From assembly GCA_000934665.2 (NCBI GenBank), contig KZ538312.1, positions 1 to 64,000 of the forward strand: a DNA stretch of 64,000 bases, read 5' to 3'. Shown piece by piece: positions 2,897 to 10,090 of this stretch (within the stretch, counting starts at the first letter, position 1; every line of letters starts with the position of its first letter). The notes under the pieces are model-generated. The model was not told the DNA's origin, ran no database searches, and saw only the letters and a list, made by a program, of their open reading frames with translations. The DNA is from Catajapyx aquilonaris (taxonomy: Eukaryota). A program made the position numbers and the translations under genes.

Positions 2897-3297
2897 AAAA
2901 CTATATTACAAAAATGCAAGCTAAATTTGGTCAAAAAATTCTCATCTACCGTTGCTTACAAACATGTAAAATTAGTTGTTCTCACCTGTTTATTCCATAT
3001 CTTTCGTAAGATTGTGTGTTGGCAGTAACATTTTGCTTAATAATTAAAATGACTGCAATTGTGCAATGGAAGGGGGAAAAAAAACCATTTCTGGGGCCTT
3101 GAAATCAACAAATGGAATAAAAGTGGTACACAAACTGTCATCTCTTAGAAGGTTTATTATTAAATTACAATGAACTTCGCCTTCCCTAATAGAGTCGGCG
3201 CACTTGGCTTTAACATAAAAGTCTGCTAATTTCATATTGTAATTAACATGCGACTGCATAAATTTTTCAAACCTGCAGTAGGTTTAACGCAAATTAT

Positions 3298-5085
3298 TCA
3301 TATTGTGACTGTTTCATCCGTCGCTTTATGCAAACCTTGCGTATGATTTGTTAAATCAGATTCACTCGCAAAAGTCGCACCGCAAGATCCGCATTTAAAC
3401 AACTTGTCATTGTGCTTCTTTACGTGTTGACAGTAGTAGCGATAGTCTTTAAAGGACTTTTCGCATACATCGCATTTGTGCAACCCTTTCTTGTGAACCA
3501 CCCGAATGTGGACCCCCAAATAGCTTTCAGACGATAGGATTTTGCTACAAATGTGGCACTTGTACGGAGAATCGTCTGAGTGTTCAGCTTTGAAATGCTC
3601 CACCAAACGCCTGCTCTGAACGAACGACTTGTGGCACTCGCTGCACGAATATGGCTTCTTTGTATGAGTCGATTCGTGCGCTTCCAAACCGGCCTGAAAT
3701 TCAAAGCACTTTCCGCATACGTCACATGCGTAGGACTTCTCGACATGTTTGCGCTGATGGCTGGCAAGGTCGCAAGGGCGGAAGAACTGCTTGTCGCAGT
3801 AGTCGCACGTGTACGGATTCTCCCGATGGCGTGTCCGCAAGTGACTCTTCAACCACTCGTCCTTGGCAAACGTCTGATCGCACCGGCTGCAAGCAAACGG
3901 CTTAATCTTCTGCGCACTATGCGTAATCACATGCATGGTCAGGCTGCTCTTTTGGCTAAACGATCGACCGCATATGTCGCACGTGAAGGGCTTCTCCCCC
4001 GTATGACTCCGCATGTGCCGCGCCAAGTGGCCGAAGCAGCTGAAGGTCTTTGCGCACAGTTCGCATCTTGCCATGCTCAAATCCGGATGTCGTGTCCGCA
4101 TATGCTGGGTCAGCCATTGTTCGGTTGCGAATTTGGCTTGGCAATACTTACACGGGTGGAGCGTACCGTGGTTCGTACTCTCAGGCTGCTTATCCGGATG
4201 CGCTGTCTTAATGTGATGCGACAACCAAGCCTCGGTCGTGAAGCAGGAGTCGCAGTACTCACACTGGTGCGTGTCGCTACTTCCTGGGTTCGTATCGAGC
4301 GGATCTGTCGCTTCCGTCGTGTCGAAAGTGGCCTCAATTTCCTCCTCCTCCATCTTCACCTGTACGTCGCACTCTGCCGTCTCCTCTTCTGCAGGTTGCG
4401 GGGCATGTTCCTCCTTGATTTGACCCGCAGTTGACCCGGAGTTGACCTCCATTTCCCATGTCTCTTCAGCGGAACAAGTGTCTTCAACCTTGACATCCAT
4501 CGCAGGCTGATCTGTAGAGAAAGTAGTTAACACCAATCGCAATCTCACGTATCTGCACATACCCACAGCTGCTGGGGATCGCCCTTATGCCATTGAGGGT
4601 ACTAATTGAGCCCCGGGGCGAACAAGCCCGGGCAAAAACACCAGAGAAAACACAGGGGCCAGAATCGAACGTTTCACAGAAGGTAACAGCGCTATTGACA
4701 GATGCGGCCAAAATTCGAACTAAAAAGCAAAGCTGCTGCTAATAACGGTTATCGAACATAGCCGCTACTTAAGCCAGTTCAAAAGTAACGTTACATGCTA
4801 TTCGGCTATTTATTGCGCCAATTATGTATTTTAATTACCGTTTTCCTCAATTAGGGTTGCGGTGCTGCTGGCGGGTGAGCGGCCGTGCTTCTTGAGCACG
4901 TTTGTGACGGTGGAGCGGTTGAGGTTGAGCGCCAGGGCGGCCCTCTCCCTGGCGGAGGAGAACGGGGCGAGAGGGCGTCCCACGGCCTTCTCGGCGTCGA
5001 AGAAGGAGCAGACGTTCAGTATGAGCCGCTGCGCCTGGTGTCCGAATCTCTCCCCCTTGAACTGCCCGCCGGACGACCTCGACAT
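3298..5085 (-). CDS. C2H2 zinc-finger protein (11 fingers) with an N-terminal HTH-like exon, ~486 aa
   Basis: Exons 5085-4839 (MSRSSGGQF...IEEN, donor G|GTAATT) and 4511-3298 (acceptor TTTCTCTACAG|AT). The phase-1 join G+AT gives Asp in frame. There are 11 CxxC...HxxxH fingers including a TGEKPF linker, preceded by an acidic spacer. The ZnF exon is secure; the upstream exon link is inferred. Confidence 0.85.
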
Positions 5086-5469
5086 TGTTCCCAAAGAAAG
5101 ACGACAACAACCACAGAGAGCGAAGGAAGAAAATTTTGGGAGTGACGTCAGTCGGACCTTTTTCCGAGATGGCGGCTGCAGCAGAGTTGCCAACAGGACG
5201 AATACTTTTATTTTCCTTTCCAAAAATGACCATGCAAAAAAAAAAAATGCTGCAATTTCTCTCGAAATCAAAATGAATTTGGTTGACCATTTGAAGAAAT
5301 TGTTATGAAGGAAAAAATGCGTTACGAGGATTTTTCCAGCCGTCCGAATGCACCCAAAATCAATAAAATATGGCGGGTCTTTTGAATCTCGTTTTTGTTT
5401 GCGGATTTCTCTGATTCGCACTGTTTTTTTGGCGAGGCGAATGTTTGCCGAAATTCTGTCCTAAAGGTT

Positions 5470-5747
5470 CCTAATAATAACTAATAATTCCTAATAATAA
5501 CTAATAATAATAACTAATAATAATAACTAATAATAATAATTCCTAATAATAACTAATAATTCCTAATAACTAATAATAATAACTAATAATTCCTAATAAT
5601 AACTAATACTAATAACTAATAATTCCTAATAATTAATAATAACTAATAATTCCTCATAATAACTAATAATAATAACTAATAATAACTAATAATTCCTCAT
5701 AATAATAATAACTAATAATTCCTAATAATAACTAATAATTCCTAATA
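5470..5747. repeat. AT-rich low-complexity tandem repeat (TAATAAC/TAATTCC units)
   Basis: Direct inspection. Confidence 0.9.
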
Positions 5748-6020
5748 AGTCACATCTTATAAGTGCTTGTGTTGCTGTAGCCTTTTGGAGTGACCGCACC
5801 AGTACAACTCATCGGGAAAGGAGTAGTACCAATGATAAGGAAAAGCCACTCAAATCCGACTATAAATGAGGAAATTGTTTCGAGACTCCCTCAGGATCAA
5901 ACTGTCACTTATTTATTCTTATATGTGCGGACACATTGTTGTGCCAAGCGGCTTTTGAGAGACATTGTAACCTTCTCTGAGACAATAAAAAAACAGGGCT
6001 GTGATTTCTATCAAAATTAA

Positions 6021-6152
6021 CCTCCTGAGACCCCCTAGTACACCTTTCAATCACCTTTGTTTGTTTGTTGTTTTTTTTTACGCGTTTGAGTTAGTCAGAA
6101 GGTGCTGGAAAAAAACAAAGGTACAGTATACTGTACCAGGGGTCTCAGGAGG
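6021..6152. mobile_element. piggyBac-like MITE
   Basis: TIRs CCTCCTGAGACCCC / GGGGTCTCAGGAGG, with TTAA on both sides (6017-6020 and 6153-6156). Confidence 0.75.
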
Positions 6153-6535
6153 TTAAAGGTATTTGGAGCCATTTGAGGAAATGTTATGAGAGACAAGTTA
6201 TATTATATTTCTTTGTATACTAAATAAATTGCAATCCTATATTGGAAATTTAATAATATATATTTTCCTCAACGCTTTTTTTCTTCTTCAATATTTAAAA
6301 CCAATTTTACAGCTTGAATACAGGTGGTTTTAATGACAATCTGCTGCGAAATTTAATTAGTGTATTAGATTAAAATATGCAGCCAATTTTTAACGAGCAT
6401 ATTTGCATTCATAAATGTACACTTAATTAATATAGTAACTAACATATATTATTCTTGCTAGTCTTGCAGTGATGGGGGGGGGGGGGGGGGGGGGNCTTTA
6501 CAATAAGTACCGGTACATAACGGGAGTATCGAAGT

Positions 6536-6793: not shown

Positions 6794-8035
6794 AAGAGTA
6801 GATATCAACCTCTCTTGGAAGTTGTAGTTCCACTACAGGATTATGAGGCTGTTCTTTGTCTAACAGAAAAGAAACCATGTTAGCAACTGTTTATTAGCAA
6901 AACTCTGCCCATTGCGCCATCACATTACAAAATAATTTCTGCACATGCAGCTGCTTTTAAGTTGTGCCAATTTAGTCATATCCATTTACAAGTTACATGC
7001 TCCTCGTCAGCTCAGGAACAGCACGGAAAATGCCATAGCGATGCAGCAGGCAGCCACCCAAGGGCTCTTCCTCTCACCGATGCGGGCGCACTTCCAGAAA
7101 GTGCCGGAAAACCTGCGAAGGTCAACGACAGCGGTTTTTCATTCCGCAACGTACTTGTACGCATCATACTGAATTGTCGTGGGCTTAATTAGGATTTCAA
7201 CCTGAATTCCCTTCTCACCCAGTTTTGTTCCTGTCGATGATGCTGGGCGCAATGGAGCGTACGTAAGCGCAGGTGCAGATGAGCAGCAGGACCACGCACA
7301 GCAAGCTTTGGAAGTTGAAAAGGGCCGACTGCACGGTACAAACAAAAACATAAGTTGCAGATGAACCACTGGAATCAAGTCTAATTAAATTTCTCACCAT
7401 TTTTCAGCAAAAAAAAATTAATAATTATTCATCACGCCGCCATCTTGGAATCGCCGAGCCGATTACACCGCAGCTGCTGCAAAATCGCCGCTACTTGAAA
7501 ATAACGGCTACCTTTAAATCGCGGCTACTTGTAACCAGTTATTCGGCTAAATTAATATTTTTTAAAAAAATGCGCAGTTTCAGTAATTGTGTTTACCTTG
7601 AACGTATTTAATGTTTTTAAAGTTAATAATGACCATATTTTGGTGTTTAAAAAAACTGGAGCTGTCCACATTGGAGCGGGTGAGGTCGTGACGTCACATG
7701 TGCAGACGACAAACTGGGTTTAATTAGTTTAACCTGGATTTAATCCTAATTGAGCGTTAATTACGGCGCGTTGTTTAATTGCGACGTGGCATTATATTTA
7801 TGAAGGTCGATTTTTTTTTTGATTATAATTCAGTAGGCGAAAGGGTGGAGCCGCCATGTTGACTCCGCCCTGTTGACTCTCTTCAGCAAGGAGTCTGCTG
7901 CACTAGTTTTTTCCCCCCTTCGTTTTTTTTTTTAAATTACTCCCCCCCACAGTTTAATTAACTGTCGTGTACTGCTTGTAATGACTTTTGTATGTTTTGC
8001 ACATCACACGTGAGAAGCAGCAGGCATCCGTCAGC

Positions 8036-10090
8036 ATGGTTCAGTCAGGCGGGGCTGGCAACGCCGGCCGTACGGGTATCCGTGTCTTCAAGATCGTCGT
8101 GCTGGGAGAAGGAGGCGTCGGAAAGTCCGGTCAGCAAATACCCCCTAATTAACCCGACTAATTAACAAACGCGTATTTAACAGCACTGCCCGTCATCAGT
8201 CACATGATCAGACTAGCCAATCACTGCTGCGTGACGTCAATTGTTGGCGGGATATTTGAATACTGTGACCTCACAGTTGTTGGCAGTGCTGTTTAATTAA
8301 GCTACTAATTAGTCGAGCCAGAAATTGGCCAAAAAAACACTGGGTTTGTGTGCAGTTGGCCAGTCACATGATCAGATCTGGCCAATCACAGCTGGTTAGC
8401 TCCACATTTCAAACTGAGCTGTTGGCTGTATAGTGTATATATTGTGCCGGAATATTTAATTAACCAACTAATTAGTCGCTTAAAATAGGTCAAAAGCAAT
8501 ATTTAATACCCAAGTACACGAATCACCCTGGAATATCCAGTGGATATCCAAATATCCAGTGGCGATTCAGTGGATATCTGGATATACATGGGATATTCCA
8601 GGGCGATTCGTGCTACTTGGGAAGCAGTTGGCAGCACTGACAGTCACATGATCAAGCTAGCCAATCACAGCTGCGTGATGTCACCGTTGGCAACATTGTG
8701 CCATGATATTTAATTAAGCATGTAATTAGTCGAATTAGTCACTGTTGTGCCATGATATTTAATTAAGCATGCAATTAATCAGCTGAAATTGGCCAAAAAA
8801 ATCCCAATTGAGTTGGCAGCAATGTCAGTCACATGATTAGGGTAGCCAATCACATGTGCGTGACGTCACTGTTGTCGCCGTAATTATATGAAATGTTATG
8901 ACGTCACTATAGTCGCCATATATGAAATGTGATGACGTCACCATTGGCAATATTATGGCGATAATTGTTTAATTAGTCGCCAGAAATTGGCAAGCATTTT
9001 GTGGCCCCTAATTAACACGTCTAATTGGCGCAAATTAGCATAAAGTTGGCAGCACTGCCTGAAGTCACATGATCAGGGTAGCCAATCACAGCTGCGTGAC
9101 GTCACTGCTGGCGCCATGTTTGAATTGATGACGTATCACAGGCTGTGTGACGTCACTGTTGGCGCCATGTTTGAATTGATGACGTCACTGCCATTGGCAA
9201 TATTGTTGCGCCACGTTGGCAACACTGTGGCGGGACATTTCAAATTGCGCTGAATGTTAATTATTATTATTGATATGTTGCGATTGGATTTGCAGCTCTG
9301 ACGTTGCAGTTCGTGAGCCATCGCTTTCTGGAGTACCACGATCCGACCATAGGTAAATGAGCGATTGCGCTTTCCGTGCCCGTTGCTTTACACCTGCGCT
9401 TTTCCAGAGGATGCGTACCAGCAGCAGGCGGTGATCGACGGAGAGGCGGCCAAGCTGGACATACTGGACACTGCAGGTCAGGTGGAGTTCACGGCCATGC
9501 GTGACCAGTACATGCGATGCGGCGAGGGCTTCGTACTCTGCTACTCCATCACGGACCGGCGTAGCTTCGAGGAGGTGCAGGAGTACAGGCGGCTCATATC
9601 CAAAGTCAGAGCGTGCGACGACATTCCGCTGGTGCTGGTCGGAAACAAGTTTGATCTAGCCGAAGGAAGAAAGGTCAGTTCGATGCGAGGTCGCTCACCT
9701 GGTTTGACCCCATTTAATCTGTAGGTGTCGAGCGAGGAGGGTCAGACGCTGGCTGGCCAGTTCGGCTGCCCTTTCTTCGAGACGTCGGCCGCTTTGCGCC
9801 ACTATGTCGACGATGCTTTTTACGCACTGGTCAGGGAGATAAGGCAGCGGGAGGTCAAGAAGCCAGGCGGAAGTGCGGGAAAGGTCAAGTCAAGCAGCAA
9901 GTCCAAGCTGATCGGCCACACTTCGTCGGCGCAGTCACCCGCTACGTCCTCGTCGGCCTCGTCCGCACCACCGTCGCCGACCGGCGTTGGGGAGGCCATG
10001 ACGGCGCAGAAGCACAGCCGGTGGCGCCGGTTCCGGAACATATTCGCGTTTATATTCAGGCGGAAACAGAACCGCGCAATTGACAAGTGA
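8036..10090 (+). CDS. Ric: Ras-like GTPase of the Rit/Rin/Ric subfamily, ~260 aa
   Basis: Exons 8036-8129, 9296-9352, 9408-9673 and 9725-10090, all GT-AG and in phase. Motifs: G1 GEGGVGKS, Rit/Ric-type effector HDPTIEDAY, DTAGQ, NKFD, ETSA. Polybasic C-terminus without a CAAX box. Confidence 0.93.
8180..9230. repeat. Degenerate repeat array in Ric intron 1 with E-box, CCAAT and CRE motifs
   Basis: AGTCACATGAT...GCCAATCAC occurs at ~8197, 8361, 8641, 8826 and 9063. TGACGTCA occurs at 8232, 8861, 8899, 8933, 9097, 9148 and 9180. Confidence 0.75.
8508..8621. mobile_element. Small fold-back MITE
   Basis: CCCAAGTACACGAATCACCCTGGAATATCC ... GGATATTCCAGGGCGATTCGTGCTACTTGGG inverted ends. Confidence 0.65.

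Follow-up and report, generated by a model that had tools for sequence, protein, structure and literature searches.

A transposase-derived helix-turn-helix frame as candidate alternative first exon of an eleven-finger C2H2 gene in Catajapyx aquilonaris

The first 64,000 nucleotides of contig KZ538312.1 of the Catajapyx aquilonaris assembly GCA_000934665.2 (the window, in whose positions all coordinates are given) carry on the minus strand a gene for an array of 11 C2H2 zinc fingers and, upstream of it, a short frame resembling the helix-turn-helix (HTH) of a transposase. A reading made from the sequence alone (the sequence-only reading) held that this frame is spliced in frame onto the finger exon, as a domesticated N-terminal module. 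The coding part of the proposed first exon (exon 1a, 4839–5085, phase 1) runs from the ATG at 5085–5083 through 82 full codons (5085–4840) to one further base, the G at 4839, and the putative donor GTAATT (4833–4838) follows directly (G/GTAATT). The intron of the fusion isoform would span 327 nt (4512–4838, G+C 0.45) and end at the acceptor, the pyrimidine tract of which finishes in ...CTTTCTCTACAG at 4512. Exon 2 (3298–4511) opens with AT at 4511–4510; together with the G at 4839 these bases form an Asp codon, GAT, across the join, and the frame continues to the TGA at 3300–3298. The scripted join of 247 nt and 1214 nt gave 1461 nt, or 486 codons, with no internal stop. Eleven matches to the pattern C-x2-4-C-x12-H-x3-5-H were found in the joined 486-amino-acid product, and Pfam likewise recognized 11 zf-C2H2 stretches (E 1.6e-44), lying at about 4263–3328, downstream from an acidic linker. 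The exon coordinates, codon count, splice motifs, in-frame join and finger count of the sequence-only reading were all correct on recheck, as was its remark that the two parts appear as unrelated open reading frames (ORFs), which in a stop-to-stop listing are 4831–5460 and 3298–4584.

The splice sites (GT at 4838, AG at 4512) are canonical and in phase 1 on both sides, and they place the transposase-derived and host domains on separate exons. The probability of such an in-frame fit by chance, taken alone, is 1 in 3. The donor at 4838 agrees with seven of nine positions of the consensus MAG/GTRAGT by our own count. If left unspliced, the frame of exon 1 meets a TAA at 4833–4831, two codons past the donor, and an AATAAA (4814–4809, within the proposed intron) begins 17 nt later. 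A further candidate acceptor, with a strong pyrimidine tract and an AG ending at 4720, lies between the two exons, and an internal ATG at 4500–4498 in exon 2 could serve as the start of a finger-only protein. The acceptor at 4512 is also that of a 51-nt GT..AG mini-intron (4512–4562, CT..AC on the plus strand), with GTATGT as its donor and a TTAAC about 17 nt before its AG. Upstream from the ATG at 5085 (context GGGAACAATGTCG), the ORF remains open for another 125 codons, but this stretch is non-coding, because its G+C content is flat and low at all three codon positions (0.41/0.42/0.39).

Exon 1 itself has a different composition. Its G+C content at codon positions 1, 2 and 3 is 0.56, 0.51 and 0.87 (71 of 82 third positions, against 54% for the first two positions together; Fisher p 2e-7), and the G+C-rich block coincides with 5085–4840. 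Windows of 60 bases have values of 0.63–0.73 inside it, 0.32 just past the donor and 0.27–0.42 upstream, the flanks as a whole ranging from 0.27 to 0.45. The donor at 4838 sits exactly where both the third-position signal and the homology described below come to an end. Other coding stretches in the window have third-position values (GC3) of 0.60–0.83. Exon 1 would thus bear the coding signature of its host, unlike its surroundings, which speaks against a long-dead relic, and it is this codon-position composition that suggests domestication. We consider it likely that exon 1 is translated or was until recently.

The peptide encoded by exon 1 has few relatives. A phmmer search against 1.84 billion representatives, which stand for about 15 billion proteins, yielded five proteins at E≤1e-3, the best with an E-value of 1.6e-5 and 47% identity over residues 10–66; no relative more than 47% identical was present among these representatives. 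Where named, the five matches were short beetle gene models, and one cluster mate had been labelled “Transposase” by its source. Pfam assigned no family to four of them, and the fifth (P0006) had only sub-threshold HTH rows. When longer proteins were searched with the exon-1 peptide alone, none of the 305 candidates reached E≤1, and an alignment of the first matches led, with a limit of E≤0.01, to 20 longer proteins of 314–452 amino acids (P0008–P0027; E 2.4e-32 to 7.5e-23). The family PF13358 (DDE_3) was found in 15 of these 20 and a C2H2 family in none; those with names came from beetles and moths. When six relatives were rescanned, three had DDE_3 above the cut-off, two had it at a sub-threshold score and one lacked it.

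Three comparisons place exon 1 at the start of these proteins. BLASTP aligned the exon-1 peptide with the extreme N-termini of P0014 (residues 8–57, 42% identity over 50 amino acids) and P0020 (residues 3–56, 41% over 54), with an E-value of 1e-11. By tblastn, 10 of the 25 family proteins matched 5058–4888 at E≤9e-5, and the next-best match anywhere in the window had an E-value of 0.09. A hidden Markov model (HMM), built exclusively from the 20 full-length relatives, with the exon-1 peptide excluded, was then used to search the stop-masked six-frame translation of the window. It gave a single match, at 4882–5055 on the minus strand, corresponding to profile positions 5–62 of 381 (i-E 1.9e-9). 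Nothing in the six frames matched profile positions 63–381, which include the second HTH and the catalytic core, at E≤10, and the window contains no inverted-repeat pair bracketing exon 1. We conclude that the exon 1 peptide almost certainly derives from the N-terminal HTH of a transposase, as judged from homology. The assignment to the insect IS630-Tc1-mariner (DDE_3) transposases made in the sequence-only reading has therefore held (HMM i-E 1.9e-9; BLASTP E 1e-11), and it can be sharpened. The spacing between the second catalytic Asp and the Glu, determined for 16 relatives, is 82 residues in 11 and 81 in two, the pattern being unmatched in the remaining three. A DD82E signature defines the Sailor superfamily of the IS630-Tc1-mariner group, which is common in invertebrates, including arthropods, and was not found in vertebrates (PMC8533490). 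The source lineage would accordingly be Sailor/DD82E, an attribution made from the D-82-E spacing and the DDE_3 core of the relatives. Exon 1 is a derived transposase fragment rather than an autonomous Sailor element: unlike such an element, the window keeps about 58 of the 381 profile positions and lacks the second HTH, the catalytic core and the inverted repeats.

Other searches with exon 1 were less specific. The nearest clusters in a protein atlas were unnamed arthropod proteins (0.94 and 0.93), with IS630 HTH clusters at only 0.75–0.76, values to be taken as leads only. A metagenome scan with the exon-1 peptide produced 594 pattern matches and no relatives, and the Protein Data Bank (PDB), searched by sequence, returned five chance-level rows, all oligopeptide-binding proteins (E 0.16–1.2). 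A tblastn alignment of P0005 extending past the donor to 4768, through three stops, was rejected as a chance extension, as the family profile ends at 4882. Separately, the family PF27940 is precomputed on seven of the 20 relatives (P0012, P0014, P0016, P0017, P0021, P0023 and P0024) and missing from the Pfam copy scanned here. It may be a model of the exon-1-like N-terminal region, and it was not among the rows obtained on rescanning P0014, P0016 and P0024.

A protein search with the finger exon gave 721 proteins at E≤1e-20, all of them generic finger proteins, and no orthologue was identified, the best identity being 43% among the 120 matches listed. Within the 64-kb window, exon 1 and the finger array each occur only once. 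Together with the lack of C2H2 domains in the 20 profile matches and of any HTH-plus-finger protein in the databases searched, this leaves the proposal of a lineage-specific zinc-finger family without support. The gene does appear to depart from the ZAD or BTB beginning described in the sequence-only reading as more common in insect finger genes. Neither ZAD (PF07776) nor BTB was among the 18 Pfam rows for exon 2, and neither was found in the minus-strand ORFs up to 9400. The 21 such ORFs between 5325 and 9387 contained one Pfam match, a DUF1242 at 7218–7403 (E 7.8e-15), which belongs to another gene. Exon 1 occupies the expected first-exon place of the finger gene, because there is no other domain-bearing minus-strand ORF before the DUF1242 exon.

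An AlphaFold2 (AF2) model of the exon 1 peptide, computed with the family alignment, has predicted helices at residues 16–35, 45–52 and 57–66, with both tails disordered (mean pLDDT 70.8). Foldseek found nothing in the PDB at E≤1e-3; its weak rows were HTH proteins (such as Fis, homeodomains and the HTH of an insertion sequence (IS) transposase). The VIA structure search returned generic HTH regulators with Z scores of 4.6–7.4, and the Tc3 transposase 1u78 at rank 50 (Z 4.6); such matches, with Z below 8, would signal no more than the common HTH arrangement. Likewise, no curated Pfam HTH model reached its threshold on exon 1; HTH_Tnp_Tc3_2_like, with a cut-off of 27.2 bits, scored 12.9 (E 0.12). 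The sequence-only reading had also proposed a DNA-binding or dimerisation module, and it is the dimerisation part that receives some backing, from modelling. A two-copy complex model of the HTH scored 0.75, versus 0.00 for the best of three controls; the runs agreed in at least 80% of contacts, which are made through helices 1 and 2, and the partner pLDDT was at least 71. When the dimer mark was calibrated on microbial proteins, it was reached by 21 of 30 same-chain pairs and none of 23 single chains. Among eukaryotic proteins, 17 of 29 pairs (7 of 16 in animals) and none of 30 single chains reached it; where an older solved relative was lacking, only 1 of 7 did. Dimerisation of the HTH may be entertained, tentatively, on the strength of this model, the score of which may mirror likeness to solved HTH dimers.

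Transcript-like evidence comes from one public run (X1), for which kind and library are unrecorded and which is available as contigs only (32 million letters in total). It contains 62% of the sampled words of the locus, and five contigs were placed on 3050–5350. Cover extends over 3140–4511, continues after a joint skipping 4512–4562 with 4563–4691, and includes a separate contig at 4854–5114; within 3050–5350 there is no cover on 4692–4853, above 5114 or below 3140. The lower end, at 3140, lies 13 nt after the sole AATAAA of the 3′ region (3158–3153) and defines a 3′ untranslated region (UTR) at 3140–3297, and the upper end would make 5086–5114 the probable 5′ UTR of exon 1a. Contig 4 follows the path 4691–4563 and then 4511–3803, and the 51 nt skipped have GT..AG borders on the strand of the gene. 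From this pattern, we infer that the X1 contigs are very probably derived from mRNA. Given the joint, the acceptor at 4512 is in use, and the segment 4563–4691 (exon 1b, 4691 being the contig limit) can be described as an alternative leader. The leader is unlikely to be coding, because X1 differs from the window by eight substitutions and a 1-nt deletion in its 129 nt. Since a TAA at 4587–4585 interrupts the finger frame within it, the leader isoform, on its sequence, must start at the ATG at 4500–4498 and encode fingers only. The exon-1 contig has a depth of 7.9, against 10.4–11.9 on exon 2, and is identical to the window; its 0 differences in 261 nt, versus 10 in 1232 nt of exon 2, do not amount to a significant deficit (P about 0.12). 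In exon 2, eight of the 10 sites differing in the main X1 haplotype are synonymous and two non-synonymous, a pattern that would be expected of a constrained gene.

Two further features of X1 were recorded. At 3633–3832 there are two contigs of similar depth (4.3 and 3.8), one identical to the window and the other with 11 substitutions (seven non-synonymous and four synonymous) and an 8-nt deletion at 3713, which would cause a frameshift from roughly the seventh finger onwards; the divergent contig could represent an allele that is broken, a paralogue that is expressed or a chimera produced when the finger repeats were assembled. In addition, X1 lacks one base at 4609. A route joining exon 1a to 4719–4563 therefore amounts to 247+156 nt in X1, in phase with the fingers, as against 247+157 nt, out of phase, in the window allele. 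The frame of the 247+156 route meets the TAA at 4587–4585 (window sequence), and four of the eight X1 differences fall within 31 nt of the ends of the piece.

We favour the following interpretation of the locus. A Sailor transposon (DD82E, IS630-Tc1-mariner group) would have landed at the 5′ end of a C2H2 gene, and the surviving piece, consisting of the start codon of the element, its first HTH (about 60 residues) and a short linker, would now form a G+C3-rich coding first exon (5085–4839), most likely an alternative one. Its donor at 4838 would be spliced to the acceptor at 4512, which already served the 51-nt leader intron, yielding a 486-amino-acid protein composed of the HTH, the acidic linker and 11 fingers. 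This product would coexist with the older finger-only form starting at ATG 4500, and the HTH would act as a dimerising and/or additional DNA-binding head, the role of ZAD in other insect finger proteins. The interpretation starts from the homology, the in-frame geometry, the composition, the use of the acceptor and the cover of exon 1 in X1, which are observed; use of the donor at 4838, selection on exon 1, dimerisation and any function are what it would add to them. We put the existence of the fusion isoform at an even chance, and hold the same balanced view of the fuller proposition that a host-transposase fusion arose here recently and that the parental isoform persists beside it. Parental and fusion transcripts coexist in 18 of 33 young (<100 My) host-transposase fusions (bioRxiv 10.1101/2020.05.07.082677). 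A more far-reaching version, in which this would be the first host gene from a Sailor transposase, caught with both isoforms and with the HTH as a ZAD-like dimerisation head, perhaps steering the protein to relic Sailor ends, seems to us rather doubtful.

Several results weigh against a fusion. The X1 contig that crosses the acceptor runs into 4563–4691 instead of exon 1. In X1 the acceptor is used and exon 1 is covered, but the junction expected from the sequence-only reading (4839/4511) was not seen, the donor at 4562 being joined in its place. The exon-1 contig ends at 4854, 15 nt before the donor, and is uninformative as to the partner of exon 1, and the RNA status of X1 is itself deduced, its kind being off record. 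No protein combining an HTH of the exon-1 type with C2H2 fingers was found in the databases searched, and the protein searches gave no orthologue of exon 1. At loop positions 35, 37 and 40, which hardly vary within the family, the exon-1 peptide has other residues; its structural matches are generic only and it reaches no Pfam HTH model at cut-off. The high GC3 could have been inherited from a G+C-rich source element. Finally, the unspliced stop two codons after the donor, followed by AATAAA, fits a separate product of 84 amino acids about as well.

This last point is the basis of the main rival explanation, according to which the HTH frame is translated but never fused, as an 84-amino-acid protein ending at the TAA at 4833–4831. 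Such a protein could be made from a tiny mRNA of its own using the AATAAA at 4814–4809, the poly(A) signal lying just 17 nt beyond the stop, or from the finger mRNA itself, as its upstream cistron, for instance through splicing of exon 1a to the acceptor at 4720 with the 4719–4563 leader included. The strong pyrimidine tract and AG at 4720 suit the latter variant, in which the window allele, with 247+157 nt, would not keep the fingers in phase. The entry of X1 into exon 2 from 4563–4691 also favours an unfused product; GC3 marks exon 1 as coding and is silent on what it joins. This would be a “DNA-binding-domain-only” domestication comparable to that of Drosophila CG4570, and HTH-only domestication has been published (PMC13548663). 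It nonetheless requires two coincidences, namely a donor with seven of nine consensus positions exactly at the end of the frame and a phase fit to a proven acceptor 327 nt away. Moreover, X1 has no cover of 4692–4853, where the 3′ UTR or the retained stretch would lie, and the 1-nt deletion and eight substitutions that separate X1 from the window in the leader at 4563–4691 make a coding role for it unlikely. We regard an unfused product as unlikely, if less so than the two explanations that follow.

Fragments of transposons are common near genes, and exon 1 might be no more than the 5′ remnant of an inactive Sailor copy, situated by chance in the promoter or leader of the finger gene, its frame, GT and phase being fortuitous and the protein finger-only. 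The disappearance of the rest of the element from the window, where no terminal-inverted-repeat pair surrounds exon 1, would be expected of a stub, as would the finger-only nature of the assembled X1 isoform and the replacement of three residues nearly invariant in the family. A stub would not, however, be expected to display a sharp excess of third-position G+C confined to 5085–4840 amid flanks of 27–45% G+C, nor a frame intact from the start codon of the element through the whole homologous stretch. In addition, X1 depth on exon 1 is near that on exon 2, with 0 differences in 261 nt, and, with the closest relative at 47% identity among representatives of about 15 billion proteins, exon 1 is not an obvious recent copy. 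We consider this explanation improbable. Least probable of all, and overlapping with the others, is a reading of the 51-nt skip as a genomic deletion allele in a DNA run, with an allele devoid of the acceptor making the fusion non-essential. In its favour, the kind and library of X1 are unrecorded, and the haplotypes in the sample diverge and show further indels, of 8 nt at 3713 and of 1 nt at 4609. Against it, the skipped piece has GT..AG borders, which a random deletion would have with a chance of about 1 in 256, and a branch-like TTAAC. Moreover, cover ends at 5114 on one side and 13 nt beyond the AATAAA on the other, is absent from 4692–4853 and both flanks, and the contigs total only 32 million letters.

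The surroundings of the gene contain other features. Two Ras-family exons lie on the plus strand at 9353–10087 (E 1e-27 and 5.6e-6). About 250 nt past the poly(A) site of the finger gene, an inverted repeat (2801–2896), its 45-nt arms matching perfectly around a loop of 6 nt, has a hairpin- or miniature inverted-repeat transposable element (MITE)-like appearance. A minisatellite rich in A+T, in which a unit of 10 nt is repeated about 28 times (76% matches), occupies 5471–5748, about 360 nt upstream from the end of the exon-1 contig. Closer to that end, at about 50–60 nt upstream, a 15-nt motif with GCCGCCATCT (5162–5176) resembles a core-promoter site of the YY1/Pho type. It recurs inverted at 7436–7450, just upstream from the DUF1242 exon, a match at 14 of 15 positions in 5 kb that is not beyond chance. 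A perfect pair of 18-nt inverted repeats 104 nt apart (6017–6034 and 6139–6156) is possibly a miniature element. The results of a scan for sigma-70 promoters and terminators were discarded as meaningless for an animal gene.

In its architecture, the putative fusion protein can be compared with the ZAD proteins. ZAD is a dimerisation domain with a zinc-binding Cys4 fold, found as a small N-terminal module on an exon of its own in insect C2H2 proteins. The fusion would similarly have its N-terminal module encoded by a separate exon and followed by a linker and tandem C2H2 fingers, and the complex model suggests a dimer role for the module; what the two share is a layout and perhaps a role, without common descent.

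Host-transposase fusion and the domestication of a transposase HTH are both known phenomena. The Caenorhabditis F-box A2 family (e.g. FBXA-215) has a Tc1/mariner (Mos1-like) HTH at the N-terminus of a multicopy host domain; as proposed here, a transposase HTH, tri-helical in that family, is encoded by a single exon and precedes the domain of a host multigene family, with no transposon ends left (PMC12062965). The HTH is proposed there to serve in protein-protein contacts rather than transcription (PMC12062965). The case differs from the present one in its host domain (F-box/FTH rather than a C2H2 array) and its source (mariner rather than Sailor/DD82E), the locus described here being single and its splice putative. 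KRABINER, other KRAB-transposase fusions and SETMAR resemble it in the insertion by or in a host gene, in capture through alternative splicing and in the retention of the transposase DNA-binding domain (bioRxiv 10.1101/2020.05.07.082677). In the vertebrate fusions, the transposase part is mostly downstream and brings the acceptor (eight of nine examined; bioRxiv 10.1101/2020.05.07.082677), whereas at this locus it would come first and contribute the start codon and donor, and the host partner would itself be a DNA-binding array rather than a KRAB or SET effector. CG4570 of Drosophila also retains only the N-terminal HTH of an IS630-Tc1-mariner transposase, and its similarity to the ancestor is comparably weak (tblastn E 2e-10, versus E 1e-11 to 1.9e-9 here), but it is a stand-alone protein of 225 amino acids with orthologues and measured constraint and, in the portion of the paper available, no reported finger fusion (PMC13548663). 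The link to Sailor lies in the D-82-E spacing and DDE_3 core of the exon 1 relatives, Sailor being common in arthropods; in the accessible part of its description, domestication is treated only in general terms (PMC8533490). No paper on a Sailor-derived host gene came up in literature searches on DD82E elements, although supplementary tables may contain comparable fusions. Particular to this locus would be the Sailor source, the C2H2 partner and an element giving its start codon and donor to the pre-existing acceptor of a leader intron.

[quoted passage not shown] Should the junction prove not to be real, the locus comprises a finger gene of the ordinary kind and, beside it, either a small HTH gene or a commonplace relic of a transposon. 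If it is real, it would add an insect C2H2 gene as host and Sailor as source superfamily, together with a mode of capture in which the element supplies the first exon, with its start codon and donor, onto the pre-existing acceptor of a leader intron. The gene would then provide a small and tractable system for studying whether a transposase HTH can replace ZAD as the pairing module of insect finger proteins.

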